Counted from the stretch's first letter, positions 8,505 to 30,056 are shown. The stretch: DNA of 35,388 nt from Bacteroidia bacterium (GCA_044377255.1 JBILJL010000003.1:1-35388), one strand, 5' to 3'. Numbers and translations are program-made. The notes: generated by a model from the sequence alone, not told the origin.

Positions 8505-8505
8505 G

Positions 8506-12569: not shown

Positions 12570-12573
12570 TTCG

Positions 12574-13749
12574 TTAGTTTTTTTGTATACTAATTTCATC
12601 CACCCAAACATCTCCAATTCCATTCATTTGAATTAAAAACTGTTTGAACCTATTTGTGTCAAAACCATTTTTATCAAAATTAAAATCTGCAAATGGAATG
12701 GTAACCTCCATCCAGTTTTCTTTGAGCTTACTTGGTTTACTGTAATTACTATGAACATTCACCAAATTGGTTTTTCCATTATACGACTCAAAGCCAACTT
12801 GTAATTGACCCAAAGCGGCCGGATAATTTCCTTTAACAAAGAAATGTAGGCTTAGTTGACTCATTGAATCTTGAATTGCTATTGCTTGCCAATGATCCCA
12901 ATTTAAACCCATTTGCCTGTTACCCTTGCCCATTTCTTGCTCATTCCATTTTAGGTTCAAACCTTTATTGCCCGAATAATATTCATCACTTGTTAATGTG
13001 ATGTTTCTTCCCGGATAATTACCCAATCCCCATGCATAAGTTAACTCATCATGGAACAAAACAATGGGGTAATTTGTAGCAGTTACCTGACCAAATTTCT
13101 GACTGCTACCAGGTTTAATTTCTGCACCACCTATTTTCAATTCATCAAACAAAAATGCACCAGACCCTTGGCACTCTATGTTTAAACTTTTGATATTACT
13201 AAAATCACTCAATGGCGCAGCCGCTTGTAGAAAGGCACTCAAAGGAATGCTCACTTTTTGCCATTGCGTATCAATTGGATAGCGTTGCAATTGTTTTGCT
13301 TTTAAAACAGTTGCTGTTTGCACTCCCGCGTAATCCTCTAATAAAAAAATAAGCGTTGGAATAAATTGTTTGCCCTCAATGGCACGCATATAAAAATCAA
13401 TACTACCCGTTGCCATCACGTCACTCAAATCCTTTGGTGCATAACCATTCCAGCCAATTCCAAATCCAATCCAAGGACATTTTCCTGTTTTGTCCCAGCT
13501 TATACTTAAACTTGACTTACCAGAATAAGAAATACTATCTATACGGGCAAAGTTTTTACAATCTGTTTTTTCTAAACCCCAAACATCCACAGATTGATCG
13601 CTATAAACTTCTCTATCTTGAAACTCTCTTGAAGACTTAGAATCATAGGTGCTTCCCCATTCATCTACCAATACTGTTTGCTGCATGTGAATGCCGCATG
13701 CGCTTAGCAAAACGAATAGAACAAAATAAAATACTACTAACTTTTTCAT
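12574..13749 (-). CDS. Lipoprotein with two tandem CBM-like (galactose-binding-like fold) domains
   Basis: Lipobox LSAC. Internal repeat WGL..YSGxxxLxxxW..W..VxIPxxxF..DE occurs twice. Confidence 0.7.
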   Translation of the reverse strand: MKKLVVFYFVLFVLLSACGIHMQQTVLVDEWGSTYDSKSSREFQDREVYSDQSVDVWGLEKTDCKNFARIDSISYSGKSSLSISWDKTGKCPWIGFGIGWNGYAPKDLSDVMATGSIDFYMRAIEGKQFIPTLIFLLEDYAGVQTATVLKAKQLQRYPIDTQWQKVSIPLSAFLQAAAPLSDFSNIKSLNIECQGSGAFLFDELKIGGAEIKPGSSQKFGQVTATNYPIVLFHDELTYAWGLGNYPGRNITLTSDEYYSGNKGLNLKWNEQEMGKGNRQMGLNWDHWQAIAIQDSMSQLSLHFFVKGNYPAALGQLQVGFESYNGKTNLVNVHSNYSKPSKLKENWMEVTIPFADFNFDKNGFDTNRFKQFLIQMNGIGDVWVDEISIQKN

Positions 13750-14783
13750 TAAGGTTGAAAAGGTGTATTATAAGTAAATGAACAATAATCCATTCCTACT
13801 CTTGTTGCACCAGAGGTTCCAGCCTGTGCTAGCAACAAAAATTGAGTGGCAATAATTCTATCTAAATCTTTTCTTCCGGTACGATCCACATTTCCAAAGC
13901 CACCTGAGGTAGAAATTTTAGTAGCCGAATAAGGAAAACTTACCAATTTCCAACCAGTCCAATTTACAGGGAAACGGTAGGTATAAGCGCCTTCTTCAGC
14001 TGGCTGATAAATGCCATCTTTGTTGTCATCTTCTTGAAACTCTATGCTCATTTCTGCCTTGTTATCACCCCATCCATAAACATAGGCATTGAAGAATACC
14101 TTCTCTGGATTATCTGTACTGAAACTAAAATAATTTTCACCAGTACCTTGGCTAACTTTTGCGGATAGGTTCATACCGCATAAAAATAAACTAGCGCTCG
14201 GGCCATGGTTTCCTGCCAAAACATAGTAACGTGTTTTTTCGGCTGGTGATATTCCTTGATAATTAACTGTAGCTCCATTGAATGATTGTTGGCCCTCGGT
14301 AAAAGTGTTGTAAGGCCTTTGTGGGCTCTCAAAATCATCTATTAAAATATCCACTGAAGGTGTGGGCCTAACATCAGTAATAACAATGGTATCTGAATAT
14401 AAAGTATCAGGATAGGAATCAAAACTCATTCGTGCCACACAAGGTTCATTCTTTCTAAAAAACGGTGCAAAGGTTATCGTTCCATTCCAAGCCAATTGGT
14501 TCAGGCTAAAATCTTTGTCGTTGCCCGTAAATACCTTTCTAGCACCGCTGTTTAAGCCAATAACCTCAACTGTCCATTTGGTTCTTATGCTTAAGGTTGT
14601 TTTATAATAAACAATGTCTCCTTTGGCAAAATCTGCAGTTTTTTGTGAGGCACGCAATGGCTCCATTATTTTAAATTCCCCAAATATATCAACCAACTCC
14701 GGTCCTTCTATTGAGCTATCTTTCTTACATGCTGCAAGAAAAACTATGGCTATTAGCCCAAAATATATGATAATCTTATTCAT
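13749..14783 (-). CDS. Surface lipoprotein, putative glycan-binding protein
   Basis: Lipobox LAAC-KKD. C-terminal domain starts LIDDFE and contains VNWTGWKLVSFPY, a CBM11-like pattern. Confidence 0.7.
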   Translation of the reverse strand: MNKIIIYFGLIAIVFLAACKKDSSIEGPELVDIFGEFKIMEPLRASQKTADFAKGDIVYYKTTLSIRTKWTVEVIGLNSGARKVFTGNDKDFSLNQLAWNGTITFAPFFRKNEPCVARMSFDSYPDTLYSDTIVITDVRPTPSVDILIDDFESPQRPYNTFTEGQQSFNGATVNYQGISPAEKTRYYVLAGNHGPSASLFLCGMNLSAKVSQGTGENYFSFSTDNPEKVFFNAYVYGWGDNKAEMSIEFQEDDNKDGIYQPAEEGAYTYRFPVNWTGWKLVSFPYSATKISTSGGFGNVDRTGRKDLDRIIATQFLLLAQAGTSGATRVGMDYCSFTYNTPFQP

Positions 14784-14790
14784 AATTTTA

Positions 14791-16521
14791 TTAAAAAAAC
14801 AAATTATACAAAACGGTAAAACGATTGATTTTATATTGGTTTTCTGGCAGCAATTGATTACCCCAATTGGTTTGCTGAAACTGTAACTTCAAACAATTAT
14901 TCTTACTAAATTGATAGTTGATACCACCAATATAAAGCGTTTCATTTAAATCGGCCTTAAAGGCATTGTAAAAGATTACTTCATTAAAGCTGTTTCTCTC
15001 TGCCAAATATTCATTACCTGTAGCATTCACAAAAATGCTTGCAAACTGTAATTCCAATTTAGGTATTACCTCAAACTCTATACCTACCTTCAATTGGTTG
15101 GTTTTCAAATCTATTTTATCAATCCCTTCAACACCATCTCTCGTGGTATTTTGAATGCGACCATAAACCCCAACATGCAATTTCTTTTTGCCTTTATACA
15201 ATTCATTCAAACCCAGATCAGCATAAGCTTCTATGTGGGTGAAGCTTCTCAAATTAGTAGTTCCTTGACCTGTTATTTCGTTATACATTGAACCTTCTGC
15301 GCCCAATTTCAACAGTTGCTTTTTAGAGTGACTCCAACCCAATTCTATATCTGCACCCTGCCTGTTCGGTGTTGCTTTTCCGTAAGGCAACATGTTTTCA
15401 TAAGCAGGATTGTATACTTTTAATGCGGGATTTAAAAACATGTTATAATAGTTGCCATCAGTTAAAATATCAAGTATGGTTGCTGGCCTAACAGATTCTC
15501 TGTTGGTATAATATGGATATTCACTTGCCACCATGTTATAATCTACTCTTCTACTTTGAGCACCCATGCTCCTAAAACTGGTTTCCACACTTCTATAAGA
15601 AGCCCCAATTGTCCATGATTGTTTCTTGTTTTGCAAATCAAATCCTGCATCAACAAACCCGCCATCTGGCACATTTGGCGCGCCTGCAATATTATCAAAG
15701 GTAACCTTAGAATTACCCAACTCAGCCTTTAGGTTCAATAGGTGATTGCTTAGGGTAATTTTTTCTTTAGCTGCTATACTTTGAACATTGTTTTTAAACA
15801 AGCCATTAGAAAACATGGCCGAGTTTTTAACATCAAATATATATACATAATTATAAGCTAAACTCAATTGATGAAAAGCCCTCGCCTCAACAGTGCCGCT
15901 AGAAAACAAGCGATCTGGCGTACTAAAATAATCTGTTTGTCTGTTCTTTGCAATCATACCTGTTACATGCAGGTGATCTAAATGCTTGTCAAAATCAAAA
16001 CCAATATCAGCAGTGGCACCTTGCTGTCTCCAAGAATTCTTACCATAAAATTTATCATAGTCTATAATCTCCGAAAAAGTATTTAACGCCAAAGGATTGT
16101 GTGCACTTAATTCTCCGGTAGGATTATATAATGTATAAGGAGTCATTCTTGTGTTTAAATCGCCCACCTGATATTTAACGCGCTTAAACATTAAACCACG
16201 TAAATACAATTCACGCAAATAAAAAGTAATGCCTCCACCCCAAAAACCATTGATATCATTGGTAACACGAGTAATGGCTTTGATTTCTGTTTCCTCTGTT
16301 GGCCTAATATGAAAGCCCAAATCAAACAAAGTAGCTCCTGTCATTTGCTTCCTCGCAGTGGTGGTATCCTTATCCAATAATGGTCCGCTCAAATTGCCAT
16401 TGTTCAATAAAAATCGGCCTGAACCAAAAAAATCAACCTTCTTTTCTTGCTTGTCTTGTCCAAAAACAAACATTGGCATTGCAGCCAATAACAACAATAT
16501 ATATGTATAAATAACTTTCAT
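14791..16521 (-). CDS. Uncharacterised outer-membrane beta-barrel protein
   Basis: Signal peptide, many alternating hydrophobic strands, C-terminal VLYNLFF. No SusC motifs. Confidence 0.7.
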   Translation of the reverse strand: MKVIYTYILLLLAAMPMFVFGQDKQEKKVDFFGSGRFLLNNGNLSGPLLDKDTTTARKQMTGATLFDLGFHIRPTEETEIKAITRVTNDINGFWGGGITFYLRELYLRGLMFKRVKYQVGDLNTRMTPYTLYNPTGELSAHNPLALNTFSEIIDYDKFYGKNSWRQQGATADIGFDFDKHLDHLHVTGMIAKNRQTDYFSTPDRLFSSGTVEARAFHQLSLAYNYVYIFDVKNSAMFSNGLFKNNVQSIAAKEKITLSNHLLNLKAELGNSKVTFDNIAGAPNVPDGGFVDAGFDLQNKKQSWTIGASYRSVETSFRSMGAQSRRVDYNMVASEYPYYTNRESVRPATILDILTDGNYYNMFLNPALKVYNPAYENMLPYGKATPNRQGADIELGWSHSKKQLLKLGAEGSMYNEITGQGTTNLRSFTHIEAYADLGLNELYKGKKKLHVGVYGRIQNTTRDGVEGIDKIDLKTNQLKVGIEFEVIPKLELQFASIFVNATGNEYLAERNSFNEVIFYNAFKADLNETLYIGGINYQFSKNNCLKLQFQQTNWGNQLLPENQYKINRFTVLYNLFF

Positions 16522-16522
16522 A

Positions 16523-18490
16523 TTAAAAGAATAATTTTAGTTCTATGGTGGTTTCTGTTCCCTTGATATTGTCTTGCACAAAGCTCTGATCTACCTGACT
16601 CATCCACCTTCTCCGCAAATACAGATTAGTGTTCTTAGATAGATGAATATCCAAACCCAATCCAAACAATTTTCCAGTTTGGTTGATTGCGTCGTTATTA
16701 ATACTTCCAACCTTTCCATCCTTGTTATCTCCCTTATTGAGTTGCTTGTTTCCTTTTATGTACTCTCTACCAAAAGTGGTAACCAAACTTACGTCTTTGT
16801 GTAGCATAAAAACGCCATCTAACTCGTGGTAATATGTGCGCAAATAAGCACTGCTACTGAAATCTGGCAATAAGGCAAATTGGCTTTGGGCTGATCCAAA
16901 TGACCCTACATAAAGCACATAAAATGGCAACCAAGATAAGTTCACTCTTTGCTTTAATTGAACTTGTAACATGTTAAATCCTAACAAACTTTTTGGCATA
17001 CCTATTTCATTGGTATCTATAATTTGCATGGTTTGCGAAAAACCCCTGAAATAGGATGTCCAATTACTGTATGCACCTACATTATTTGTAAATGGTGTAA
17101 AGCGAGAAAATGGCAATGCATTTATCTTATGTCCAAATGCCACCTGCCTGCTCATAGAACTTACCTCCATTGAGCTCATGTTTCCTACATTTAATTTGGT
17201 TGATTTTGTTAAGTCGAACCAAGCATTTACGCTGAATCCTTTTCTATTATTACTCACCTGACCAACATCTGTAATGGATCCGGCAAAATTGCTTATACCT
17301 CCACTTCCACCTAGAGTTGCGCCATTTTGGTTCAAAGCTGCTGTGCTTACAATATTGGTGTTGAAGCTTAAAAAATTACCATAGTAATTGATAAACTGCG
17401 GACTCAAATAAAATGCTTCTAATTCTATTGGAATCTTGGTAACTTTTGCTGGGGTTCTTAACAATATTCTTCCTGCATTTCCCCAACCTTCCTTTTGTAC
17501 TTGTGAGTAGAGTTGACCTCTTCCCATTTCGGCAGAAACCACAAATCCCTTGTAATTTAAATCATATGAAAAGGTAAAGAGCTGAATGCCGGCTTGCTCT
17601 TTTGCTGTAGAATCTACAAACAATCGATAGTCCATGGTATTGATCCCTATGCTTTGGTTTTTAAACTTCTTTTTAATCTTTCCACCCAACACATAAGAAG
17701 GAATATTACTGGTTATAAATGCTTGAGCTGGCGTGGTGCCATATAAGAACCTAAATGAAACATTGCCAGGTAATTCTTCACCATCAACCAATAAGCCCTT
17801 AAAAGGCTGCATCCCAAAACGCATGTCTCTGCTGATGCTTCCATAACTGTAATAATTAGATGCCCTATCATAAGAAACTGCATTGCCCTCCCAAGGCCAA
17901 CGCTCATAAATGCTAAATCTTTGGTATCCTATAAAGCTACTGAATACCATGCCACTCAGCTCCACCCAATTGATACCGCCCATGTGAGCCGTAAATTTTC
18001 CAACATCTGTTTGTATGCTGCCTGTTAAATTAATTCCTAAGTTTAAGTTAATTGGACTGGTACCTGGGTTTCCAGAAAAGTTATGGTATAAGGCATAATC
18101 CATCCCAATAAATGTTTTAGAAGTAGGCTGAACCGATAAATTCAATAGCATCATGGGTGGGTCTCTGTATACATCCCCTGTGCCCAATATGTATGCAGGA
18201 GCACTGGCATAGGGATTTCCTGGTATTACCACAAATGGTTGTTCAAGGTTTCTGTTGATTCCAAAAAATCGGTAATAGCCACCTACATTCAACTTTTTTA
18301 AGGGAATCAAACCTGCAGGCCCAGTTGCAATTGGCTTATAGGTAGAATCTGTTTCTAAATCCTGAGCCTTTAATTCATGAGGGAAGACCACGAAACAGGC
18401 AAACCCAATCACAATTAATAATCTGTTTAAAAAGTAAGATGAATTCAATATCCTTTTAATTATTCCGTGAATCTCAATGATAGTTAGCAA
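16523..18490 (-). CDS. Uncharacterised outer-membrane beta-barrel protein (start may be TTG 18448)
   Basis: Signal peptide ending LKA-Q, amphipathic strands, C-terminal IELKLFF. First gene of the operon. Confidence 0.7.
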   Translation of the reverse strand: MLTIIEIHGIIKRILNSSYFLNRLLIVIGFACFVVFPHELKAQDLETDSTYKPIATGPAGLIPLKKLNVGGYYRFFGINRNLEQPFVVIPGNPYASAPAYILGTGDVYRDPPMMLLNLSVQPTSKTFIGMDYALYHNFSGNPGTSPINLNLGINLTGSIQTDVGKFTAHMGGINWVELSGMVFSSFIGYQRFSIYERWPWEGNAVSYDRASNYYSYGSISRDMRFGMQPFKGLLVDGEELPGNVSFRFLYGTTPAQAFITSNIPSYVLGGKIKKKFKNQSIGINTMDYRLFVDSTAKEQAGIQLFTFSYDLNYKGFVVSAEMGRGQLYSQVQKEGWGNAGRILLRTPAKVTKIPIELEAFYLSPQFINYYGNFLSFNTNIVSTAALNQNGATLGGSGGISNFAGSITDVGQVSNNRKGFSVNAWFDLTKSTKLNVGNMSSMEVSSMSRQVAFGHKINALPFSRFTPFTNNVGAYSNWTSYFRGFSQTMQIIDTNEIGMPKSLLGFNMLQVQLKQRVNLSWLPFYVLYVGSFGSAQSQFALLPDFSSSAYLRTYYHELDGVFMLHKDVSLVTTFGREYIKGNKQLNKGDNKDGKVGSINNDAINQTGKLFGLGLDIHLSKNTNLYLRRRWMSQVDQSFVQDNIKGTETTIELKLFF

Positions 18491-18541
18491 AATACCTCAT
18501 ATCACCTCCCCAACTCACCTACTTCAAAGCAATTACAACCT

Positions 18542-18558
18542 ACAACATCACTACTACA
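18542..18558. promoter_or_regulatory. Putative regulator box, copy 1 (ACAACATCACTACTACA)
   Basis: 15/17 match to the two identical copies. Lies between the operon and the divergent regulator. Confidence 0.65.
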
Positions 18559-18639
18559 AAACTTGTCAAGTATCTGTAAATAAATATTTTATTGCTTGTA
18601 AGATAAAAGAGAATTTACTATAATTGATTCTACATTGAT

Positions 18640-21519
18640 ATGATAAAAACAAAAAAATATTCATGGTTACCCTTGTTTCTGGTAGCATATTTCTTCCTAA
18701 GCCAGGTATATGTTATGGCGCAGCCTATTTCTAATAGCCCTTTGATTAAAAACTACACCAAAAAAATTTACCAAGGAGGCACCCAAAATTGGGATATTTG
18801 CGAAGGAGATAATGGATTAGTGTTTTACGCCAACAACGAGGGCCTCCTGGTATTTGATGGAAAAATATTTAGCAAACATGCTCTTCCTAAAAATACCATT
18901 CTTAGGTCTATTTTATACGATAGTAAAACAAAAAGAATTTATGCCGGTGGTCAAAATGAAATGGGCTATTATCAATTTGAGACCAATGGCAGCTTGCAAT
19001 ACATTTCCATAGCCAACCTCATGCCAGAAGGTTATAAAGGCTTTGAGGATGTTTGGGGAATTGAAGAATATGAGGGCAGGTTTTATTTTCAAACCAATCG
19101 CCAGGTATTTATGTACGACCAAAAATCACTCATTGCGGTAGCACAGTTGGAAAATACACTCGAAAATATTTATAAAGTTGGCAAACGCCTCTTTTTAACA
19201 GATATTGAGGGAAGCATTTTTGAACTCAAAGGTGGTCAATTCAACAAACTAATTAGCAAAAGTGGTTTAGATATCTCGTCTATTCTTGCCAGAGGTAATA
19301 ACCAATTACTGATTACTACCTATAAAAACGGACTCTATTTTTATCAAGACCAAAAGCTAGTTAAGGCGAGTAATAACCAAGAGTTATTTAGGGTTAGTCG
19401 CATTTACAAGGCTTGCAATTTTGGGAGTAATTATATTTTAGGTTCAAACCGAAATGGTGTATTTATTTTAGATAGCAACGCCCAAATTATCAAAAACATT
19501 AGTAATAAAGACGGGCTTCAAAACAACAATGTGCTTTCGGTTTATAAAGATGCCAACCACAATATATGGTTAGGCTTGGATAATGGCATAGATTTGCTTA
19601 GAACCAATTACCCTTTTGCATACGTGGTGCCTGATGGACTGCTTAAAGGGACAGGATATTGTATGGCCGAATTTGGTGATAGTTATTACTTTGGCACCAA
19701 CAATGGGTTATATGCTCAAAAGAAAAATAATAACAGCACCTTTGAATTGATTGCCAATACCGAAGGTCAGGTTTGGTGGGTTCAAGAAATTAACGGAAAA
19801 CTGTTTGTATGCCACCACGAGGGTTTATTTGAAGTGCAAGGCAATACGGCAAACAAAATTTCTGAAATCAGAGGCTGTTGGAAAATCATTCCTTTAAAAA
19901 GCAATCTCGGTTTCTTTGCTCTTGGCACCTACAATGGCATTTCTATTTTTAATTGGCAGAACAATACGCTCTCCTTTGTGGCCACACCTAACCCATTTAA
20001 AGAGTCGAGCCGATTTTTAGAAGAAGATGAATTAGGCAATATTTGGGTAGCTCACCCCTATAAAGGCCTCTATAAAATAAGGTTAAACAACGACTTACAA
20101 AGTGTGCAAAACGTAAAACTGTTTGGTACAAAAGAAGGATTGCCTAGCCAAAATGAAAACTATGTTTTTAATACCCAACAAGGTTTAAGTTTCTGCACCA
20201 CCAAAGGTGTTTATGAGTTTCGCGAAGATTACGGACGATTTCAACCTGCTAAAAGCTTCAATGGATTACTTGATAACAACGATGCATTCAAAAGATTGTA
20301 TGTTGGCAAAAATGGCAAATTGTGGTTCATCAATAACCATGAAATTGGTTTTATTAAACCTATTTATGATGGGGTAGAATATTCTTTCTCTAAAGTGTTG
20401 CTTCCTAAACTAGACCAAAACCTTGTGGGAGGATTCGATTTCCTACATGAATGTGGGAATGGAAATGTTTTCCTTGGTGTGGAATCTGGCTTTGAGCAAT
20501 TTAATTTGAACCAAATTGGCAAATTCAAACCTGTTCAACCGCAAACTTTAATTACAGCAATTCATTCTCTTGAACAACTGGATTCTGTTTACTTTAAATA
20601 CCTTGGACCGCAAAGCAACACCGTAGAAATAAACGACCGCTCTATAGAATTCTCGTACAGTTCAACCAATGCAAATTTTTTTAACGACTTATCGTTTTCA
20701 AGTTATTTAGAGGGTTGGGAGAAAGATTGGTCGCCCTACAAAAGCTCCACTAACAGAGAGTTTAGCCGTTTATCTTTTGGAGACTACTCTTTTCATATCA
20801 AAGCCAAATGCCTTGGTATAGAAGGACCCGAAACCATTATAAAAATTCACATTCCTGCTCCTTGGTACTGGACCAAAGTTGCCAAGTTTATTTATTCCTT
20901 TATAGGTATTATTATAGTATTACTCATTGGTTTCTTCCCGCAAATGTTGGTAAGAAAAAAAGCTATCCGCATTATTGCCGAAAAAGACACCTTGTTTAAG
21001 CAGCAAACAGAATCGCTCAAACAAGAAAAGGATCAAAAAGACAAAGAGCTGATAGAACTAAAAAACCAACAATTACAGCAAGAAATTGAACACCAAGGCA
21101 GAGAATTAGCGTCCTCAACCATGCATATTGTTCAAAAAAGTGAAATGTTATTAAGCATCAAGGATAAGCTTAAACACATTTCAAGTATTAGCAATGATCC
21201 TAAAATTAAACCTGAGATAAGCGATCTCATCAAAAACATTGAAAAAGATACCATCATTGACAGAGATTGGGAAAAATTTGAACTCTATTTTAATAATATT
21301 CATGATAGATTTACACTTATTTTAAAAGCGCGTTTTCCTGTATTTACTGCAAACGACATCAAAATGTGCGCCTACCTGCGTATGAATCTTTCAACAAAAG
21401 AAATTGCAACTATTCTAAACATCTCTGTGCGTGGAGTTGAGATAAGCAGGTATCGCTTAAGAAAAAAGATGGGGCTAGATAATGGAGCCAACCTTACTGA
21501 GTACTTAAGTAAAATATAA
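18640..21519 (+). CDS. Membrane-spanning one-component regulator: beta-propeller sensor, Y_Y_Y domain, TM helix, LuxR-type HTH
   Basis: QNWDI, ANNEGLL, GLQNNNVLS..NIWLGLDNGI repeats. LEGWEKDWS..GDYSFHIKA. PWYWT plus TM helix. C-terminal CAYLRMNLSTKEIATILNISVRGVEISRYRLRKK. No kinase or receiver domain. Confidence 0.9.
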   Translation: MIKTKKYSWLPLFLVAYFFLSQVYVMAQPISNSPLIKNYTKKIYQGGTQNWDICEGDNGLVFYANNEGLLVFDGKIFSKHALPKNTILRSILYDSKTKRIYAGGQNEMGYYQFETNGSLQYISIANLMPEGYKGFEDVWGIEEYEGRFYFQTNRQVFMYDQKSLIAVAQLENTLENIYKVGKRLFLTDIEGSIFELKGGQFNKLISKSGLDISSILARGNNQLLITTYKNGLYFYQDQKLVKASNNQELFRVSRIYKACNFGSNYILGSNRNGVFILDSNAQIIKNISNKDGLQNNNVLSVYKDANHNIWLGLDNGIDLLRTNYPFAYVVPDGLLKGTGYCMAEFGDSYYFGTNNGLYAQKKNNNSTFELIANTEGQVWWVQEINGKLFVCHHEGLFEVQGNTANKISEIRGCWKIIPLKSNLGFFALGTYNGISIFNWQNNTLSFVATPNPFKESSRFLEEDELGNIWVAHPYKGLYKIRLNNDLQSVQNVKLFGTKEGLPSQNENYVFNTQQGLSFCTTKGVYEFREDYGRFQPAKSFNGLLDNNDAFKRLYVGKNGKLWFINNHEIGFIKPIYDGVEYSFSKVLLPKLDQNLVGGFDFLHECGNGNVFLGVESGFEQFNLNQIGKFKPVQPQTLITAIHSLEQLDSVYFKYLGPQSNTVEINDRSIEFSYSSTNANFFNDLSFSSYLEGWEKDWSPYKSSTNREFSRLSFGDYSFHIKAKCLGIEGPETIIKIHIPAPWYWTKVAKFIYSFIGIIIVLLIGFFPQMLVRKKAIRIIAEKDTLFKQQTESLKQEKDQKDKELIELKNQQLQQEIEHQGRELASSTMHIVQKSEMLLSIKDKLKHISSISNDPKIKPEISDLIKNIEKDTIIDRDWEKFELYFNNIHDRFTLILKARFPVFTANDIKMCAYLRMNLSTKEIATILNISVRGVEISRYRLRKKMGLDNGANLTEYLSKI

Positions 21520-21526
21520 AAGAAAA

Positions 21527-21547
21527 GCCCCGCTAAATTAGCGAGGC
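21527..21547. terminator. Probable terminator hairpin between convergent genes
   Basis: GCCCCGCTAA-a-TTAGCGAGGC preceded by an A-run (U-tract on the minus strand). Confidence 0.6.
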
Positions 21548-21577
21548 CTCTCTTCTCAATTACAAACAAATCAGAAC

Positions 21578-24500
21578 TTATTCAACCAACAACTTGTAGG
21601 TTTTTACGGCTTGATCCAACTCAATTTTTACCAAATAAATGCCTGGAGTTAACGCTTGAACATCTAGGTTCAAACCGTTAATTGCGTTGGCTTCAGTATT
21701 GGCTTTTTCCATCATCAATGAACCCACTACATTGTATACACTTACTTTTGAATTAGCCTTAATGCTTTGTCCAAAATCTATATACAAATTATCAGTTGCT
21801 GGGTTAGGATACATTTTTACTGAATTCAAAACCTGATTAGCTAATCCAACTGCATCACAAATGGTACAGGTGTTCCAGCAATAAGCACCAATGGTTTTTG
21901 CAGCTGTATCAGATACTACCATATAACGATTGGTAAAAGTTCCTGTAGTTTTGGTACACAAATCAGAAGGACTAAACGACTCTTGATCGTCCCAATTACC
22001 AATTGTATACTTAAATTCATAAGCACCAGTATCTAAACTCAAGGTAACGCCATAAATGTTTGAACCAATTAAAGTCATTGGTGTACAAGCACCGCACCAA
22101 CCATTAAATGAACCATTTAAAGTAACTCCTTTAGAAAGGTCTCCTACATAATTTTTCATGTTTACCTTAAAGGTAACCTTTGCCTTAGGTGCAGTATTTG
22201 CGCAACTTACACAGCTTTCCCAACATACTACCGGCATGGTATCATTGGTTTTAGAAACCTTGATAGTACGATTGGTAAAGCCAGATTTGGTAGTTGTACA
22301 AGGCAGACCTTCCTTCAAAATTTCTTGTGAAACCCAGTTACCAATTGAATATTTAAAATCATATGTGGTGTCCTTATCTAATAATACAGTAGCTGCCCAA
22401 ATATTGCTAGTTCCCAATTTAGTCATTGGGGTACATTTGCCACACCAGTTGTTGAAGGTACCATTTAGAGTAACTGTGTCACCAGCATTCATATTATATT
22501 TCGACATATCCACTCTAAAGGTTAAATTGGTTTTTGTTGGTCCGCCACTGCTACATGCATTACAAGTTTCCCAACAAACCATAGGAATAGAATCGTTTAC
22601 TTTAGTAGTTTTATAAATCCTATTGGTAAAACCACTAGTAGTTTTAGTACAAGTTAATGAAGGAGCTAAGTTCTCTTGCGAAACCCAGTTACCAATGGCA
22701 TACTTATATTCATATTCCATAGCTGTATCTAAAGCAATGGTGGTAGTCCAAATTTTGGTTCCAACTATATTGGTCATTTTGGTACAAGCGCCACACCAAC
22801 CATTGAAAGTTCCATTTAAAGTAACTGTATCACCCGCATTCATTGGAATGTTTTTGGTATCAACAGTAAACTTCACATTCACCTTTGTAGGTGGCGGAGG
22901 CGTAATACCACCAGCCATCATTACATCATCAAAATAGTAGGTTTTATTGCCAGCAGTTGCACCTGTAACGCCAAAGTTAAAGAAAATAGAAAGCATTTTG
23001 TATTGGTAGGTATAATTGATTGGAACAGTACCACTAGATTGTTTTGAAAAATCAAATTCAATCACCTGCCATGCGTTTGCCACAGTAGTTTTGGTGTCTG
23101 TTTCTACGCTCTTGGTATTATCTGTAGGTACTTCAGCTTTCAATTTTACAACAATGCCTGTATCTGGTGAAAACACTCTTACACGTATTTTATTTGAAGA
23201 GGCAGAAAAGGGAATTACTTCTGCTAAACCAGCTCCAGTGCTCATGGTAGTTCCAGCCCATAACTCAGCAGTATTGTTTTTAATTACTTTAGCTACTTTA
23301 TTAGCTGCATTGTTTGGATCAGCTACAACACTGCTAGCATTGCCACCAAAATCAATCATGGTATAGTTTACATTAGCTGAATCAAAAGTAATTGGCAATT
23401 TAACCTGAGCCATTACGGGAGGTGTTGTTCCTGCATAGAGAATATTGTCGAAATGATATGTTTTGGTACCTGCAGTTGCACCCGTAACACCAAAATTAAA
23501 GAACACAGACAACATCTTATAGGTATAACCATAATTGATTGGCGCGGTTCCTGTAGCTTGATTAGCAAAATTAAATTCTAATTCATGCCACGCATTGGCA
23601 ACAGTTGTGCGCGCTTCTGTCTCCACACTTTTAGTTGGATCTGTAGGATCTTCAGCTTTTAAACGAACAGCAATGCCACTATCAGGTGAATAAACCATCA
23701 TTTTAATTTTAGCATTAGTTGAAGTAAATGGAATTGCCTCTGCCAAGCCTGTAGCTGTGCTCATAGTTGTTCCAGCCCATGTTTCGGCTGTATTTGATTT
23801 GATTACCTTTGCCACTTTATTTGTAGCATTTGTTGGATCAGCAACAACACTACTAGTAGTTCCGCCAAAATCAGTCATGGTGTAATTCACATTGGTAGAA
23901 TCGTAGTTAATAGGTAATTTTACCTGAGCCAAAATTGGACCACTTGCAGGTACAAATCTTAAATCATCAAAATAATACACTTTTGTACCGGCAGTTGCAC
24001 CAGTAACACCAAAATTAAAGAATGCAGAAACTTTCTTATAGGTATAAGTGTAATTAATTGGAGCAGTTCCTGAAGCTTGATTGGCAAAATTAAACTCTAA
24101 AGTTTGCCAAGTATTGGCAGCTGTTGTGCGGGCTTCCGTTTCTACACTTTTACCTCCATCATTAGGATCTTCGGCTTTTAAACGAATAGCAATACCACTA
24201 TCAGGTGAATAAACACGCATGGTCATTTTGGTAGCATTTGCAGCAAAAGGAATAGCACTTACAAATCCACTAGCTGGTCCAACAGTTGTACCAGCCCATA
24301 ACTCTGCTGTATTAGATTTTGTTACCTTAGCTACTTTATTGGTAGAAACCACAGGGTCGGTAAACACCAAACTTGCGTTGCCACCAAAATCTTGCAATAC
24401 ATAATCAACGTTTGTACTATCAAAATTAACCGGCAAATTCATTGGCAATAAGCTAGTACAAGCTGAGCATGAATTCCAGCAAACCACTGGTAAAATAGTT

Positions 24501-24847
24501 GCCGCAGTAACATTCAACGACCTATTGGTAAATCCACCATTGGTTACAGTGCAAGGCAAAGAAGAAGCCAATGCTTCTTGCGCGTTCCATCCACCAACAG
24601 TAAACTTATATTCCTGAGCACCAACAGGAATTGGTAAAGTTACCTGCCAAACATTAGTAGTTCCTTGTTTCACCATAGGGTTACACCTACCGCACCACGA
24701 ATTCCAAGTACCATTCACATAAACGGTATCATTTAATCCAACATAATTGGACATGTCTACCTTAAAGGTGACATTGTTTTGAGCCTGAACCGCTACGTTT
24801 AGTAGCATCATCAGGAAAAAAACCTTGATTGTTGTAAAAATTTTCAT
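21578..24847 (-). CDS. Secreted multi-module carbohydrate-binding protein (A-B-B-B-A-A-A-T9SS CTD)
   Basis: Four Cys-rich CBM48-like modules (V/L-x-FxV..NGT/SF/WNxWCGxC..CWxxCxxC). Three about 173-aa modules (LPxxF/YDS..DFGG..WAGTT..FFNFG..YY/HFD). CTD MYPNP..GIYLVKI. No catalytic motif recognised. Confidence 0.8.
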   Translation of the reverse strand: MKIFTTIKVFFLMMLLNVAVQAQNNVTFKVDMSNYVGLNDTVYVNGTWNSWCGRCNPMVKQGTTNVWQVTLPIPVGAQEYKFTVGGWNAQEALASSLPCTVTNGGFTNRSLNVTAATILPVVCWNSCSACTSLLPMNLPVNFDSTNVDYVLQDFGGNASLVFTDPVVSTNKVAKVTKSNTAELWAGTTVGPASGFVSAIPFAANATKMTMRVYSPDSGIAIRLKAEDPNDGGKSVETEARTTAANTWQTLEFNFANQASGTAPINYTYTYKKVSAFFNFGVTGATAGTKVYYFDDLRFVPASGPILAQVKLPINYDSTNVNYTMTDFGGTTSSVVADPTNATNKVAKVIKSNTAETWAGTTMSTATGLAEAIPFTSTNAKIKMMVYSPDSGIAVRLKAEDPTDPTKSVETEARTTVANAWHELEFNFANQATGTAPINYGYTYKMLSVFFNFGVTGATAGTKTYHFDNILYAGTTPPVMAQVKLPITFDSANVNYTMIDFGGNASSVVADPNNAANKVAKVIKNNTAELWAGTTMSTGAGLAEVIPFSASSNKIRVRVFSPDTGIVVKLKAEVPTDNTKSVETDTKTTVANAWQVIEFDFSKQSSGTVPINYTYQYKMLSIFFNFGVTGATAGNKTYYFDDVMMAGGITPPPPTKVNVKFTVDTKNIPMNAGDTVTLNGTFNGWCGACTKMTNIVGTKIWTTTIALDTAMEYEYKYAIGNWVSQENLAPSLTCTKTTSGFTNRIYKTTKVNDSIPMVCWETCNACSSGGPTKTNLTFRVDMSKYNMNAGDTVTLNGTFNNWCGKCTPMTKLGTSNIWAATVLLDKDTTYDFKYSIGNWVSQEILKEGLPCTTTKSGFTNRTIKVSKTNDTMPVVCWESCVSCANTAPKAKVTFKVNMKNYVGDLSKGVTLNGSFNGWCGACTPMTLIGSNIYGVTLSLDTGAYEFKYTIGNWDDQESFSPSDLCTKTTGTFTNRYMVVSDTAAKTIGAYCWNTCTICDAVGLANQVLNSVKMYPNPATDNLYIDFGQSIKANSKVSVYNVVGSLMMEKANTEANAINGLNLDVQALTPGIYLVKIELDQAVKTYKLLVE

Positions 24848-24950
24848 TGTATTTTGATTTGTTGATGTAAAAATAAACTAAAGATAATCTAAGCCTATTT
24901 TTAATAGCCCTTCATCACTATCACCAATAATAATTCAAAATCAAAAAACT

Positions 24951-24967
24951 ACTACAACACTACTACA
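24951..24967. promoter_or_regulatory. Putative regulator box, copy 2 (ACTACAACACTACTACA)
   Basis: About 100 nt upstream of the 24847 start. Identical to the reverse complement of 30008-30024. Confidence 0.75.
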
Positions 24968-25154
24968 TAAAAATGTAAAAAATTGATAACGTGTAATTTA
25001 ATGAAAATTCGGTTTGAACCCAAAAGCGCCTTTTCCAACAATATTAAAATAGCAGAAATAGCAAGAATCACTTTCAAAAATTCTAGGCCGAAAAAAATCA
25101 AAGGACCTAATTCCCACACTATTTAACCTAAAACGCATGCAATTTCAAAAAAAC

Positions 25155-25185
25155 TTTGCAAAAATGAAAGGAAACCTTACTTTTG
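25155..25185 (+). promoter_or_regulatory. Bacteroidota housekeeping promoter for tRNA-Phe
   Basis: TTTG (25155)-N19-TACTTTTG (25178) matches the -33/-7 consensus. Confidence 0.8.
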
Positions 25186-25254
25186 CACTCCTTAGAAATA
25201 GGTGAAAGCCCATATTTAAGGAACAATTCACTCCAGTTTAGGCAAAAGTGAAAC

Positions 25255-25327
25255 GGTGCGGTAGCTCAGTTGGTAGAGCAAAAGACTGAAAATCTTTGTG
25301 TCGGGGGTTCGAAACCCTCCCACACCA
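25255..25327 (+). tRNA. trnF: tRNA-Phe (GAA)
   Basis: GGTGCGG-TA-GCTC-AGTTGGTA-GAGC-A-AAAGA-CTGAAAA-TCTTT-GTGTC-GGGGG-TTCGAAA-CCCTC-CCACACC-A. CCA is not encoded, and there is a C5.A68 mismatch. Confidence 0.95.
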
Positions 25328-25342
25328 CAAACAAAAATTATA

Positions 25343-25376
25343 AAGCCCTGAATATTAAGTTATTTAGGGCTTTTTT
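25343..25376 (+). terminator. Hairpin after the tRNA (terminator and/or att-associated inverted repeat)
   Basis: AAAGCCCTGAATA-ttaagt-TATTTAGGGCTTT followed by Ts. Confidence 0.7.
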
Positions 25377-25440
25377 GTTTTTAATGCTGAAACTATACTG
25401 AAATTTTTTCCTTCTTATCCTCCTTTTAGTGTGCCTAACA

Positions 25441-25662
25441 TCAAAGTTCAAGTCCAATAAATATAGGTCTTTCTTTAGTATGCTTCCACTTTTGCCAATA
25501 GTCAACTAATAAGCTGCAATACTTTTCTGGCTCTGCTTCATCTAAAATTATTGCCTTAATTCCTAAATGCCATATCAACTCATTGACCTTTTTTAATTCT
25601 GGTTTTTCAGCTTTAATAAAACTACATAAAGTTTCAATGCTATTTATTTTAAATCCTTTCAT
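25441..25662 (-). CDS. Small hypothetical protein, probable mobile-element remnant
   Basis: 73 aa ATG ORF with protein-like composition, coupled by TAATG to a start-less upstream frame. Confidence 0.45.
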   Translation of the reverse strand: MKGFKINSIETLCSFIKAEKPELKKVNELIWHLGIKAIILDEAEPEKYCSLLVDYWQKWKHTKERPIFIGLEL

Positions 25663-25821
25663 TATGAATTAGTAAGAATTGGAGCAGTTAACCATTCAGG
25701 CAATACATGGACCTCATTTAATTTTATATCTGTTTGTGCTTTATCTGTATCAAGTACACAGAAGGAAAACACTGCTCTGTAAATGGCCTAAAGGCCACCT
25801 CCTAAATTTATGGATGCACCA

Positions 25822-25857
25822 TAATAATCCCGGGCCTAAAGGACCCGGGCTATTATT
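25822..25857. terminator. GC-rich imperfect hairpin
   Basis: TAATAATCCCGGGCC-TAAA-GGACCCGGGCTATTATT followed by Ts. Confidence 0.5.
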
Positions 25858-26006
25858 TTCTTACCTATAAATAACCCATTACCAAAATCAAAATGAAACA
25901 TCACATTGTCGAATGGGTATTGAAGGGTAAAAGGGCAGCTGATAAATAAGCTCAGCTGTAGGAAGGCATTTTGGTTCAAACCGAAAAAAGAGGAAATGAG
26001 GTTTTA

Positions 26007-26039
26007 TTTGTAGTTCGGTCGAAATTTTGTTTAATTTTG
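26007..26039 (+). promoter_or_regulatory. Housekeeping promoter for the PKD lipoprotein
   Basis: TTTG (26007)-N21-TAATTTTG (26032). It supports ATG 26096 as the start. Confidence 0.55.
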
Positions 26040-26095
26040 GCATGTTTGTTGGTTATGATACAATTGCCTTCAATTTAAACTATAGAACAATAATT

Positions 26096-26662
26096 ATGAA
26101 TAAAGCCTTATTCCTTCTGTTAATTACAGTTTTCATCATACCATTTGGATGCAAAAAAGCCGATACAGATCCTGTTGCAAGCTTCAGCGTTTCGAACAGA
26201 AACCCCACCATTGGAGAGTTTGTAACCTTTACCAATACTTCGCAAAATGCACACCACATTAAATGGACCTTTCCTGATGGCACCACTGCATCTAGCAACT
26301 CTGTGTCGTATACCTTTAATTTTAATGGCATCTTCAATGTACGACTTGATGCTTACGATAAAAATGAAACCTATTCTGATTTTGCTACAGAAGACATCAG
26401 TGTTTGTACCCCAGGAAGTGTAGTGTTTTATACAGATAGCGCTAGTTACAAATCGCCAATAACCATAAGTTTAAATGGTGCCTTTGTAGGCACACTAAGC
26501 AACCCTTTTGATGGCATTCCTAATTGTGGCAGCCCTGGCGCTGTAACTGCAGAAATTTGTCCTGGCACTTACTCTTATTATGCAGTTAGTGCCGAAAATA
26601 AGGTGTGGCAAAACATGGTTAAAGTTACCGCAAACGGTTGTGTAGCAATTAAACTGAATTAA
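26096..26662 (+). CDS. PKD-domain lipoprotein
   Basis: MNKALFLLL..PFGC-KK lipobox. PVASFSV..VTFTNTS..WTFPDG PKD motif, then a Cys-containing beta domain. Confidence 0.8.
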   Translation: MNKALFLLLITVFIIPFGCKKADTDPVASFSVSNRNPTIGEFVTFTNTSQNAHHIKWTFPDGTTASSNSVSYTFNFNGIFNVRLDAYDKNETYSDFATEDISVCTPGSVVFYTDSASYKSPITISLNGAFVGTLSNPFDGIPNCGSPGAVTAEICPGTYSYYAVSAENKVWQNMVKVTANGCVAIKLN

Positions 26663-29600
26663 TTTTTCAGGAAACGTTTATAGCTCACACTTCCATCTTC
26701 TCTGGTTATAGCTAGTAGATATAATCCTGTTTTCAATTCTAGAATTGCTAACTCATTAGCTCTTCCTGTTTCAATATTTTGATGGATCATTTCCAATCCA
26801 CTTAAATTATACACTTTTACTGATAGCAACTCATTTCTATCAGTTCTAATGGTTAATTTATCTGTTGCAGGATTTGGGAAAATAACAATGGGCATAGCGT
26901 TTAATTCAACATTTCCAGTAGTGCTAATGAGGTTAAAAGTTAATCGGCCTAAATTAAACCCTGCTTCATCAAACTTTAATTTTAAAATATGGTTACCTGC
27001 CGGCAATTGAATACTATCTACTTTCTTATTGGCATAAATTTTCCAATTATTTGAAGTACTATTTATCCTAATATTTGATGCAATAGTGGTAGTGTCCATG
27101 GCAATACTAAATGGTCCGCCGCCGCCAGCTAAACCAGAACTGTACCTAAAATTCAATCCATAAATGCCAGATTTTTCAATATTAACTGAATAACTCAGCC
27201 ACTCTCCCTTTTCTATAAATTCCACTATATTGCCTTCACTTCCAAACAAGCCTGCATCAACATATTCTGGACTCCTAAAATTACCTACTTGATTGGTTAT
27301 GGAGTTATCAAAATAGGATACACCTTGCCCTATACCACCCTCAAAATAATCATAATTACCTGCCTCTATACTTTGAGTGGGAATTGTTACAATTTTGTTC
27401 AAATATGGCAGCTGCGACCCAACTATTGCTTCTTCTACATTACTAAAAGAATAGCCAGTATCGGCATATGCTTTTACATAAAAACGATGGATGCCAACAT
27501 TCAATGAAGGAGTAATAATTTGAAATGGCGCTTTGGTAATTGTTCTCAACAAAGTAAGTCCATCATAAAACTCAACCTTACTAGCTATACCTTGCAATAC
27601 TGCTGCATTTAAATAGGCACTTTCTTGTGCCTTCAACTTTTTTTGCAAGGCAGTAATTCTTGCATTAATAGTTACCTCTCTATTAGTTCCCAACATACCT
27701 GGCAAAACAGTTAAAGTAAAGCCATCTGAAAAATTGACTATTAATGGCACAGTTCCATAATTTTTTGCCACATAGGTTTTTACACCCTTCTTGTTAAACA
27801 CCGCAGCTATTGGGTAGTTTGCAGTTACCGAAGCATCTGGATAACCTATACTATTAAACGTATGTAACCAATGATAAGTTTGTGCATCACTGCATCCACC
27901 TTTAGGTTTATAATTGGTATAATTATTATAGAGTTTGATTGCAGTTTCTGGATCTATCATGGCTAAATAGCTCCAATATATTTCAAACCACAAGTTATCA
28001 TTTGGGGTATTTGTGCTTACTCCTGTTTTAAGCTTCATGTCGTTCCAAAGTGTGCGCACATAGGTGGTATCATGCGCCAAATAAAAGGAAGAGCCTGTTA
28101 ATGGAAACAGTTCAATGCCATACATAGCTGCAATATCATTGGTCCAAAAAGTTCCCCTATCATAACCGTTGTTCCAAACCCTAGAGCACATTATCTGAGA
28201 ATAATTTGAAGAAAAATTCCTTTTGCTCTTATTAAAATAATACTCATCTATAGCTGTTTGCTCTGTTGTATAAAGATAGATTCCCAAATCTCTTATGGCT
28301 TTATTCCCTGTAATCTGACCCCACTGAATCAGTGATGCATTAAAATTCATTGCCTCCGATGACGACTCTTGGTTGTTGCCATGAGGTTCATTGTTGAGCA
28401 AGCCAGAGGCAAAACTATGGCCTGCATAAGGACTAAAATTTCTCAAATACGGAAACATATTGTCCGACCTATCCCAATTAGCTGCATCCCTAATCATCAT
28501 GGTTACCATTGGCCCCCAGCTAGCGGCCCAACCGGGCTCAAACTCTTCAATTGCCGCAGCCGTAAGAATAAAATTGCCATAATGAAAATGATGGTCGTTT
28601 ATATTTGCATCCGAAGAATATCCTGCAGGAAAACCTATCAAAGTAGTCCAAGGAATATTATAATAAAACAAAAAAGCATTCTCACCATTCTCAACTTTTA
28701 ACCAATCTTCCAATCGTGCTTTTACTGTTGCTACAATTTTATCCTTGGTTTCAAAATTACCTGTTTGTGCAGCAATTCTAGCAACTTGCATCAACCTGTT
28801 CATGGCCAATCCCTCATTATAAGAATCAGTCCAAGTATCTAATGCAGGATTCTTTAACAAATCAACTTTCAATTGCAAGGCACTGGGATCAAAACCACTA
28901 CTGTATTTTGCTAAATTTGGCAATGTAGGCAATACGCCATTGAATTTATTTTCAACAACAAAGCTATTACCTACCAACATTTTTAATGCTCCTCTCGCAC
29001 TTTGATAGCTCAAGGTTCCAGGCTTTGGTGAACTTAAACTAAGGTGAGCCCATTGGTGCGGCAACAAACCCAAAAGTGCCTCTGTTGATAGTCCTTCCTT
29101 TACCTCTGTAGTCAAGTTAAAGTTGGTTTGAACCAATGCTATTTCTTGGTTATAATTATAACTGGCAGTGCTATTAATTGGAAATACATAAGCGTATTGC
29201 TTAAATAAATTTGCTGTGCTTTGAGCGGCAGCTCCTTGCGGCAACATAGCTGCAGAAAAATAATTTTTACCTGCTAAGGAAGAGGTGTAGGTATTACCCG
29301 TTTTATTCCAAATAGCGCCAACAGGGCCGTATACCGCAAAATTAGAACCACTCAAAGAATTGGTAATTAGCAGCATTTCATTTTGAATACTAACCGTACC
29401 AATGTTAACCGTAATACTTGCTTCGTTGTTAATAGCCTTGGTAAAATATACAAAAGGCATTCCTGTTCCCATGGTGGCTTGCAATTGCTGGGTACCATTA
29501 TTCCAAGCGGTTTGAACCAACCAATCTGAATGATTAGAAACGGTTGGATAAGTTACATTTAAGCCCGTTAAACCAACTAAAATAGGTTGCTCTGGTCCCA

Positions 29601-29946
29601 TAGGTTGCCTTGAATCCAAAGCGCCATTACCCAAAAAAGTATAACTAATAACCAATCCTGTTGAAATTGCTTTCATCGACAAAGGATAGTTATACAGGTT
29701 TGCATTATTGCTACTCAATAAGCCTGTCCACCAATCATTAGTTGGAATGGCTTTGCTTGCTGCCAAGGCAGAAACTCTGGGAGTTCCAGCAGGCTTATTG
29801 TTTCTTCCTGCGGCATCTGCTGGCGGTAATTGTGTGGTATAGCTCCCAGATCCAATTGGAACAACCTGACTAGATACTTTTAGGCAAATAATTATAAAAC
29901 ATACAACTAACAGAAATCTTCCTTGTACTTCAACTTTCAAACCCAT
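26659..29946 (-). CDS. GH81 endo-beta-1,3-glucanase with Ig-like, CBM6-like and T9SS CTD domains
   Basis: IPTNDWW, NDHHFHYG, NNQESSSEA catalytic motifs. IEAGNYD..GEWLSYSVN CBM6-like domain. CTD IFPNPA..GLYLL. Confidence 0.92.
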   Translation of the reverse strand: MGLKVEVQGRFLLVVCFIIICLKVSSQVVPIGSGSYTTQLPPADAAGRNNKPAGTPRVSALAASKAIPTNDWWTGLLSSNNANLYNYPLSMKAISTGLVISYTFLGNGALDSRQPMGPEQPILVGLTGLNVTYPTVSNHSDWLVQTAWNNGTQQLQATMGTGMPFVYFTKAINNEASITVNIGTVSIQNEMLLITNSLSGSNFAVYGPVGAIWNKTGNTYTSSLAGKNYFSAAMLPQGAAAQSTANLFKQYAYVFPINSTASYNYNQEIALVQTNFNLTTEVKEGLSTEALLGLLPHQWAHLSLSSPKPGTLSYQSARGALKMLVGNSFVVENKFNGVLPTLPNLAKYSSGFDPSALQLKVDLLKNPALDTWTDSYNEGLAMNRLMQVARIAAQTGNFETKDKIVATVKARLEDWLKVENGENAFLFYYNIPWTTLIGFPAGYSSDANINDHHFHYGNFILTAAAIEEFEPGWAASWGPMVTMMIRDAANWDRSDNMFPYLRNFSPYAGHSFASGLLNNEPHGNNQESSSEAMNFNASLIQWGQITGNKAIRDLGIYLYTTEQTAIDEYYFNKSKRNFSSNYSQIMCSRVWNNGYDRGTFWTNDIAAMYGIELFPLTGSSFYLAHDTTYVRTLWNDMKLKTGVSTNTPNDNLWFEIYWSYLAMIDPETAIKLYNNYTNYKPKGGCSDAQTYHWLHTFNSIGYPDASVTANYPIAAVFNKKGVKTYVAKNYGTVPLIVNFSDGFTLTVLPGMLGTNREVTINARITALQKKLKAQESAYLNAAVLQGIASKVEFYDGLTLLRTITKAPFQIITPSLNVGIHRFYVKAYADTGYSFSNVEEAIVGSQLPYLNKIVTIPTQSIEAGNYDYFEGGIGQGVSYFDNSITNQVGNFRSPEYVDAGLFGSEGNIVEFIEKGEWLSYSVNIEKSGIYGLNFRYSSGLAGGGGPFSIAMDTTTIASNIRINSTSNNWKIYANKKVDSIQLPAGNHILKLKFDEAGFNLGRLTFNLISTTGNVELNAMPIVIFPNPATDKLTIRTDRNELLSVKVYNLSGLEMIHQNIETGRANELAILELKTGLYLLAITREDGSVSYKRFLKN

Positions 29947-30007
29947 CGTTTTTATTTAATACACAAAGAAAGCAAATGCAAGCTCAAATGGCCTAAGTAA
30001 TGTGGTT

Positions 30008-30024
30008 TGTAGTAGTGTTGTAGT
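30008..30024. promoter_or_regulatory. Putative regulator box, copy 3 (TGTAGTAGTGTTGTAGT)
   Basis: Exact reverse complement of 24951-24967, about 60 nt upstream of the GH81 start. Confidence 0.75.
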
Positions 30025-30056
30025 ATACTTACAAGCAAATATAAAATTTCATCAAC

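Follow-up and report, generated by a model that had tools for sequence, protein, structure and literature searches.

The closest described counterpart of the system treated here is BguR, the beta-glucan utilization regulator of Formosa agariphila KMM3901 (Bartosik et al., bioRxiv 10.64898/2026.01.10.698779, 2026). According to this preprint, a bguR deletion mutant no longer grows on laminarin, and only the wild type shows the 70- to 110-fold induction of the locus; homologues were selected by the combination of a single membrane helix, a GerE domain and a Y_Y_Y domain, and a motif recovered with XSTREME (E 2.4e-85) between bguR homologues and the first structural gene is given as the predicted binding motif (bioRxiv 10.64898/2026.01.10.698779). 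SusR is presented there as the only comparable case in Bacteroidota (bioRxiv 10.64898/2026.01.10.698779). Beyond the preprint we found no literature on this regulator class, in a search that did not include the letters of the motif. Here we analyse a 35,388-nt stretch from a Bacteroidia bacterium (GCA_044377255.1 JBILJL010000003.1:1-35388), hereafter the window, in which a short tandem-repeat element, the box, occurs at three places of a beta-glucan locus, one of them directly upstream of a gene for a membrane-spanning regulator. The original prediction, made from the window alone, took this box for the operator of the adjacent regulator with a LuxR-type helix-turn-helix (HTH). Our comparison supports this view, since the box co-occurs with the regulator, keeps a fixed position while its spacer drifts, forms same-strand pairs upstream of distant homologues and has no further strong sites in the genome. 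The box itself is real, specific and conserved, and it very probably serves the adjacent BguR-type activator as a high-affinity binding site, though binding and activation are what we infer from these patterns. A control element of this kind is largely anticipated by the BguR preprint; the tandem-repeat anatomy and strand rule of the box, the promoters outside the operon and an operon version devoid of SusC and SusD are new.

The regulator (959 residues, window 18640..21519, + strand) consists of a signal peptide, a propeller sensor, a Y_Y_Y region, one membrane helix and a GerE HTH. An N-terminal hydrophobic stretch precedes the tandem propeller sensor, which is predicted to be periplasmic. 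The propeller is detected by Pfam (Reg_prop, 1.3e-7), and the sensor matches the solved structures of hybrid two-component systems 3v9f (4.3e-42), 4a2l (4.1e-34) and 3ott (2.5e-26). The Y_Y_Y domain (PF07495) scores 21.6 bits (E 2.1e-4), under the Pfam cut-off of 26.6, and the 3v9f match spans residues 548-744, including this region. Window hydropathy exceeds 1.6 at residue 9 and at 744-755 and nowhere else, with its maximum in the window that starts at 747 (VAKFIYSFIGIIIVLLIGF), in agreement with a single membrane helix near 747-773. The C-terminal GerE HTH (PF00196, residues 907-954) reaches 27.1 bits for a cut-off of 23.5, and no HisKA, HATPase or receiver domain was found at E <=1e-3 with Pfam or <=1e-2 with NCBIfam. 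Judged by its sequence, the protein has the single membrane helix and the GerE domain by which the preprint chose its homologues, with a Y_Y_Y match below the cut-off, and it has the BguR architecture; the activator role itself is established in the preprint for F. agariphila only.

The likeness to BguR extends through the whole domain order, namely signal peptide, tandem propeller, Y_Y_Y (here a match below the cut-off), membrane helix, helical linker and GerE, with no phosphorelay module. As in the preprint, the regulator adjoins a beta-glucan locus with glycoside hydrolase (GH) families GH16 and GH3, and a conserved motif separates it from the first structural gene. Indeed, its divergent operon encodes GH16, GH3 and a protein with a carbohydrate-binding module (CBM), CBM30, resembling surface glycan-binding proteins (SGBP), while a GH81 gene lies nearby. 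On the other hand, the present lineage is known from freshwater metagenomes, its operon has no SusC/SusD pair and boxes are found at two genes outside the operon. No Formosa record appears among the best 80 of the homologue scan of named genomes. The hybrid two-component systems of Bacteroides share the homologous periplasmic sensor (3v9f, 4a2l, 3ott), but the regulator has neither kinase, receiver nor AraC-type output and carries its GerE HTH directly after the membrane helix. By description only, it also resembles SusR, ToxR and CadC, as a one-component protein with membrane-anchored DNA binding and sensing outside the cytoplasm, although its sensor and DNA-binding folds are different. ToxR and CadC bind direct repeats. 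The sites of NarL/FixJ-type (LuxR-type) regulators are mostly inverted repeats, whereas the half-sites described below are direct and 11 bp apart; the likeness to this group lies in the GerE-type domain, which aligns with EsrB (PDB 7vim). The profile search of solved structures with the regulator recovered EsrB and did not recover NarL, whose recognition helix contacts bases via Lys188, Val189 and Lys192 (PMC10853779).

The 17-mer ACTACAACACTACTACA, from which the original prediction started, is indeed present at the places indicated, exact at 24951-24967 (+) and 30008-30024 (-) and with 2 mismatches at 18542-18558 (+), and nowhere else in the window at <=3 mismatches; none of 100 window shuffles gave three matches. 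Alignment of the sites of relatives shows that the unit is better described as a 19-mer, starting 2 nt ahead of the 17-mer and composed of two tandem 8-mers, CTAC[A/T]ACA-N3-CTACTACA. The predicted 11-bp period is thereby retained, while the predicted hexamers give way to 8-mers. The aligned sites show no internal inverted symmetry, and an A-rich sequence usually follows the 19-mer. All three window boxes are intergenic, as predicted. Box 1 (CTACAACATCACTACTACA, 18540..18558, +) occupies the intergenic region from which the operon (-) and the regulator gene (+) diverge, in sense orientation for the latter. Box 2 (CTACTACAACACTACTACA, 24949..24967, +) is found 102 nt upstream of a multi-CBM gene, antisense to it, and box 3 (ATACTACAACACTACTACA on the - strand, 30008..30026) 62 nt upstream of the GH81 gene, in sense orientation and with its centre 71 nt from the ATG. 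Over 18 nt, box 3 is a perfect inverted copy of box 2.

To what extent the box is specific can be judged across the draft genome (2.56 Mb, 380 contigs, 36% G+C, 79% complete). At <=2 mismatches the 17-mer has four matches there, three of which are the window sites; the fourth (C28:374-390) falls within an open reading frame (ORF). A weight matrix trained on sites from other genomes only gave 36.0 bits for box 2, 32.2 for box 1 and 26.6 for box 3, and the next independent site among 5.1 million positions scored reached 13.4 bits, a match of 15.3 bits being the third site displaced by 3 nt. The genome thus contains only three strong sites, so the box is not the common, function-independent word that would have spoken against the original prediction.

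The box and the regulator occur together. Regulator orthologues with 55-97% identity were found in 18 of 60 relatives. Across 25 genus genomes, all 16 with the regulator also have the box (<=1 mismatch), and the 9 regulator-free genomes are without it; a control pattern, the box read backwards, gave one match in the same set. Similarly, in an evenly drawn sample of 61 family genomes the exact box occurs in 16/16 with and in 1/45 without the regulator, the backwards control giving two matches, both in one genome. Of the 31 genus matches, 30 are intergenic and stand beside the same kinds of genes (12 in the operon/regulator gap, 13 before the multi-CBM gene, 3 before GH81 and 2 before SusC-like genes) and one lies within an ORF. 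The 12 gap genomes include that of the window; 11 loci were assigned by context and G012:C45:6776 by coordinates. The distance from the box to the multi-CBM ATG is 101-104 nt in 13/13 loci, and the GH81 site, at about 61-62 nt, is occupied in the two closest relatives, G012 and G016, at the same place as in the window. The 8-mers are nearly invariant, whereas the N3 spacer takes at least 11 forms (TCA, TCG, TTG, TTA, TGC, ACA, ATA, ATG, ACG, AGT and TAG). The near-complete relative G005 (99%, 10 contigs) has two mismatch-free sites; the others carry 2 mismatches and number 16, compared to 11 for the backwards control. With this looser pattern of 2 mismatches, the counts in five relatives equal those of the control, and therefore no further members of the regulon can be claimed.

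A related pattern extends far beyond the family. We compared 124 regulator loci, not de-duplicated, with at least 120 nt of upstream sequence and 27-100% identity, comprising genus and family relatives, the best 80 named records (32-64% identity; Saprospiraceae, Chitinophagaceae, Prolixibacteraceae and others) and 30 loci of another family. A pair NTACNNCA-N3-NTACNNCA is present within 350 nt upstream, on the strand of the regulator, in 91/124 loci, and on the opposite strand in none of the 124. The half-site drifts by lineage, from CTACTACA here to CTACATCA in Chitinophagaceae-named and CTACGACA in Saprospiraceae-named records. Some loci depart from the 11-bp arrangement: in L152-L158, from the family of G047, half-sites upstream of the regulator are 22-23 bp apart (CTACATCA-N14-CTACTACA), and L160 and L171 have four in-phase half-sites at steps of 11, 22 and 11 bp.

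These observations suggest the following mode of action. The periplasmic propeller domain would sense beta-glucan fragments; the two C-terminal GerE HTHs of a regulator dimer would then lie head-to-tail on two CTACNNCA half-sites, one helical turn apart, and the bound regulator would activate weak promoters. Box 1 would serve the divergent pair, in sense orientation and centred 91 nt before the ATG of the regulator, and in antisense orientation for the operon, where it would be backed by a second conserved element, block A, centred 69 nt before the TTG start. The multi-CBM gene would repeat the layout of the operon, with a distal antisense box and a block A' at 69.5 nt, while GH81 would be driven by the box itself, in sense orientation at 71 nt.

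The distances underlying this scheme depend in part on the start of the first operon gene. This is most likely the TTG at 18448 (codon 18446-18448, -; 92 nt from the box), not the TTG at 18490 proposed by the ORF finder: a TTG at 90-92 nt from the box is conserved in 7/8 relatives, the eighth having only an ATG at 84 listed, and in most relatives examined no in-frame ATG is nearby. The protein-atlas version of this gene begins at a GTG 12 codons further in. With this start, the nearest end of the 19-mer is 92 nt from the operon, 102 nt from the multi-CBM gene, 62 nt from GH81 and 82 nt from the regulator. The range of about 50-100 nt originally predicted for the glucan units thus becomes 62-102 nt and stands in essence, once the operon start is corrected to 18448. 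From their centres, the boxes are 91, 101 and 111 nt from the start codons of the regulator, the operon and the multi-CBM gene, respectively.

The proximal place is occupied differently. Block A (CCCCAACTCACCTACTTCA, 18508..18526, +) lies on the operon side of box 1, 13 nt away, and is nearly invariant across 11 aligned loci; block A' (cccttcatcactatcacc, 24908..24925, +) lies between box 2 and the multi-CBM gene, its pattern CCCt.CA.c.CT.TCAc being kept in 13 aligned loci. Their centres are 69 nt from the TTG and 69.5 nt from the ATG, respectively. Judged by these centre-to-start distances, the operon and the multi-CBM gene are organized alike, each with a distal antisense box and a proximal conserved block, whereas GH81 carries the box itself at the proximal place, centred at 71 nt and in sense orientation. 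Conserved elements resembling a -7 promoter element follow 32 nt beyond both blocks. With less than 8 bits in the box matrix, block A does not qualify by score as another box. Loci of other families use its right half, CTACTTCA, as a variant half-site, and block A may be a weak box, that is, a weak second site for the same protein.

The blocks also offer the strongest of the alternative explanations, in which A and A' would be the functional operator and the box an auxiliary or architectural element, or the site of a second protein. Indeed, block A equals the box in conservation and occurs only once in the genome at <=3 mismatches, and the blocks stand at 69 and 69.5 nt, where GH81 has its box. 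However, GH81, and apparently the regulator's own promoter, have the box and no block A, and only the box recurs upstream of regulators in distant families. Furthermore, the variant half-site in the right half of block A is compatible with a weak additional site of the same protein, and the four in-phase half-sites of L160 and L171 show that such series exist in another family. We therefore regard this alternative as unlikely, and the box as the main site, with A and A' in a presumed supporting role.

A less probable alternative is that a different factor, for instance an alternative sigma factor or a regulator whose gene lies elsewhere, recognizes the box, which would then only travel with the locus. 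The box and the regulator always adjoin each other, and co-occurrence by itself therefore does not distinguish the regulator from the other genes of the locus. Nevertheless, both orientations and distances of 62-102 nt from start codons are unsuited to a promoter core element, and no sigma factor gene was found among the 16 scanned window ORFs (7230-35206). The targets of the box vary (barrel operon, SusC operons, a GH3-first operon, the multi-CBM gene, GH81), but the regulator is the constant neighbour, and the pair stands upstream of regulator genes in families down to 27-36% identity.

A covariation on the protein side may also point to the regulator. Where the motif GVE-x-SRYR of the HTH has Ala or Gly instead of Ile or Val, half-site position 5 is G in 8/8 loci, versus 3/82 of the others. 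The covarying position aligns with the second residue past the conserved Val in the recognition helix; going by the alignment with EsrB, it would correspond to NarL Val189. This covariation is no more than suggestive. The Ala/Gly loci (L067, L069, L074, L080, L085, L106, L122 and L140) are all Saprospiraceae-type, have CTACG.CA half-sites and form one clade.

Several points weigh against the box as the operator of this regulator. The link between the two is drawn from comparison, and the box can only tentatively be equated with the motif of the preprint, whose letters are given only in its Fig. 3C. Since the draft genome is only 79% complete, additional sites may exist. The strict pair is missing in 33/124 loci, among them L073, L086, L128 and L138 (Prolixibacteraceae-, Mariniphaga- and Draconibacterium-named), L116 and L117 (Bacteroidota/Bacteroidia) and the 22-bp subgroup; the regulators of the six individually named loci may use another word. 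Related loci are not independent, L021 and L152 being the same place. In a tree computed with the HTH columns left out, the covariation amounts to one change and one independent pair (90 rows), and as a single event it is statistically intractable. The orientation is also mixed, sense for GH81 and the regulator and antisense for the operon and the multi-CBM gene, so that the activator would have to tolerate both orientations or be assisted by blocks A and A'. Finally, the -7-like elements match the sigma-A consensus TAnnTTTG at -12 to -5 (PMC9723704) only weakly, in 3-5 of 6 fixed positions, so that the promoter positions are inferred. As to the pairless loci, the helix reads VEICRYRVRKK in L086, L116, L117 and L138, while L073 and L128 keep RYRLRKK.

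The domain scan covered 16 window ORFs (7230-35206). The seven-gene operon (7230..18448, -) encodes two putative barrels of 655 and 576 residues, a 344-residue lipoprotein, the CBM30/SGBP-like lipoprotein, GH3, a GH16-PKD protein and a TIM-barrel hydrolase with a weak GH2_C match. No SusC/SusD domain (Plug, TonB-receptor, SusD) was detected among the 16 scanned ORFs, and in this respect the locus is not a canonical polysaccharide utilization locus. The 655- and 576-residue proteins, from adjacent genes (14791-18448, -), have no Pfam or NCBIfam match and no significant mutual similarity, but both have signal peptides and a C-terminal Phe-Phe. In the 576-residue family, 8/37 aligned members match the outer-membrane barrel PF13505, and the family profile matches the OprF barrel 4rlc (E 0.0034). 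Both proteins are thus probably outer-membrane barrels. Protein-atlas look-ups gave a lead to DUF6029, which Pfam did not confirm at E up to 10, and otherwise only unnamed clusters.

Relatives place other genes behind the same box. The barrels occupy the position of SusC-like (Plug-domain) genes in G003, G006 and G007, with SusD also in G003. In G003 the regulator faces GH3-SusC-SusD-PKD proteins-GH16, followed on the same strand by a GNAT gene and a GH81 with a type IX secretion system (T9SS) signal. From this arrangement, the same box appears to drive SusCD-type and barrel-type operons within one genus. The multi-CBM protein (1089 residues, 21578..24847, -) has AMPK1_CBM/CBM_48 and X25 modules and a T9SS sorting tail (Por_Secre_tail). 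Its assignment to beta-glucans, made in the original prediction, is therefore only partly upheld: the Pfam matches are of the CBM48/AMPK type, while the box and the repeat modules, which resemble a 521-residue protein after SusD in G003 and G007 (31-36% identity), speak in its favour.

The GH81 gene (26659..29946, -) encodes an endo-beta-1,3-glucanase of 1095 residues with CBM6 and a T9SS tail (Glyco_hydro81C, 9e-47). Together with tRNA-Phe (25255-25328) and a PKD-domain gene (26027-26662), both within 25255..26662 (+), it forms a segment absent here in G003, G005, G008 and G020, where a deaminase gene follows directly after box 2. Inverted copies of the box bound this segment (24968-30007). 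True GH81 orthologues (93-95%) are found only in G012 and G016, both with the box, whereas eight GH81 paralogues (48-51% identity) in other genus genomes show no box in their 1.5-kb flanks, the best score being 7.3 bits. Given this distribution and its absence from four relatives, the segment is best read as a lineage-specific insertion carrying its own box, and the proposed tie of GH81 to the locus applies to the window's genome, G012 and G016 only.

The same segment invites the idea that boxes 2 and 3 are recombination scars, the inverted ends of an inserted or invertible 5-kb piece; indeed, these 18-nt perfect inverted copies bound exactly what the four relatives lack. We consider this very improbable, as box 2 is present in 10 other genomes that lack the segment, at a fixed distance to the multi-CBM gene, and the flanks of boxes 2 and 3 have nothing in common beyond the box. 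The orientation of the segment is the same in all three genomes, and no joints were seen in four RNA runs. Moreover, the spacers of the two copies differ in G016 (ACA/ATG) and G012 (ATA/ACA) while the 8-mers stay the same, which indicates selection on the 8-mers and argues against a scar. As for a chance recurrence of an A/C-rich word, which the AT-rich, low-complexity region might suggest, it is already contradicted by the shuffles, by the gap of more than 13 bits to the next genome site and by the conserved positions in relatives.

Part of the stretch is present in 20 lake metatranscriptome runs. In four runs, each from a different study, contigs extend over the operon and the entire multi-CBM gene, and GH81 and the regulator are covered in part. 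The multi-CBM gene (21550-24846) is covered end to end in all four, by a single contig in X1, X3 and X4. RNA contigs of three runs end at 18449/18450, beside the operon start codon, one then continuing in adapter letters, and one multi-CBM contig ends at 24846, again beside the start codon and followed by adapter letters. Coming from the target genes, all pieces listed stop short of boxes 1 and 2 and of blocks A and A', which weakly hints that the boxes precede the transcripts instead of forming part of a leader. No contig of the four runs falls on 29577-30878, nor on 25020-25670 except in X2; such gaps prove nothing. At 18059-18062, within the 655-residue gene, one nucleotide is missing and, three bases away, one is added in the RNA contigs of three runs, which looks like a frame-keeping strain difference.

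Taken together, the comparisons allow a fuller picture, which we put forward only tentatively, as it falls somewhat short of being probable as a whole. A membrane-tethered parallel dimer would bind direct CTACNNCA repeats, spaced by 22 bp or extended to four half-sites in some lineages, a reading of DNA unusual for LuxR/GerE domains. A strong distal and a weak proximal site would together fire the divergent promoters, the regulon would extend to the multi-CBM and GH81 genes, and the barrels would stand in the place of SusC/SusD. Laminarin-type beta-glucans represent a large carbon flux in waters, and descriptions of how uncultured Bacteroidota switch on their use are just beginning to appear. 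A well-defined operator, including the orientation rule and the half-site spacing, would provide a direct bench test for the BguR class and a means of reading regulons from genomes and metagenomes. It would also point to the two barrels, the lipoprotein and the multi-CBM secreted protein as probable parts of beta-glucan uptake and binding in a lineage lacking SusC/SusD at this locus. If the reading is true, a simple code has been conserved from Saprospiraceae to this lineage, and because it is simple and conserved, beta-glucan-responsive genes would be predictable from sequence in uncultured Bacteroidota.

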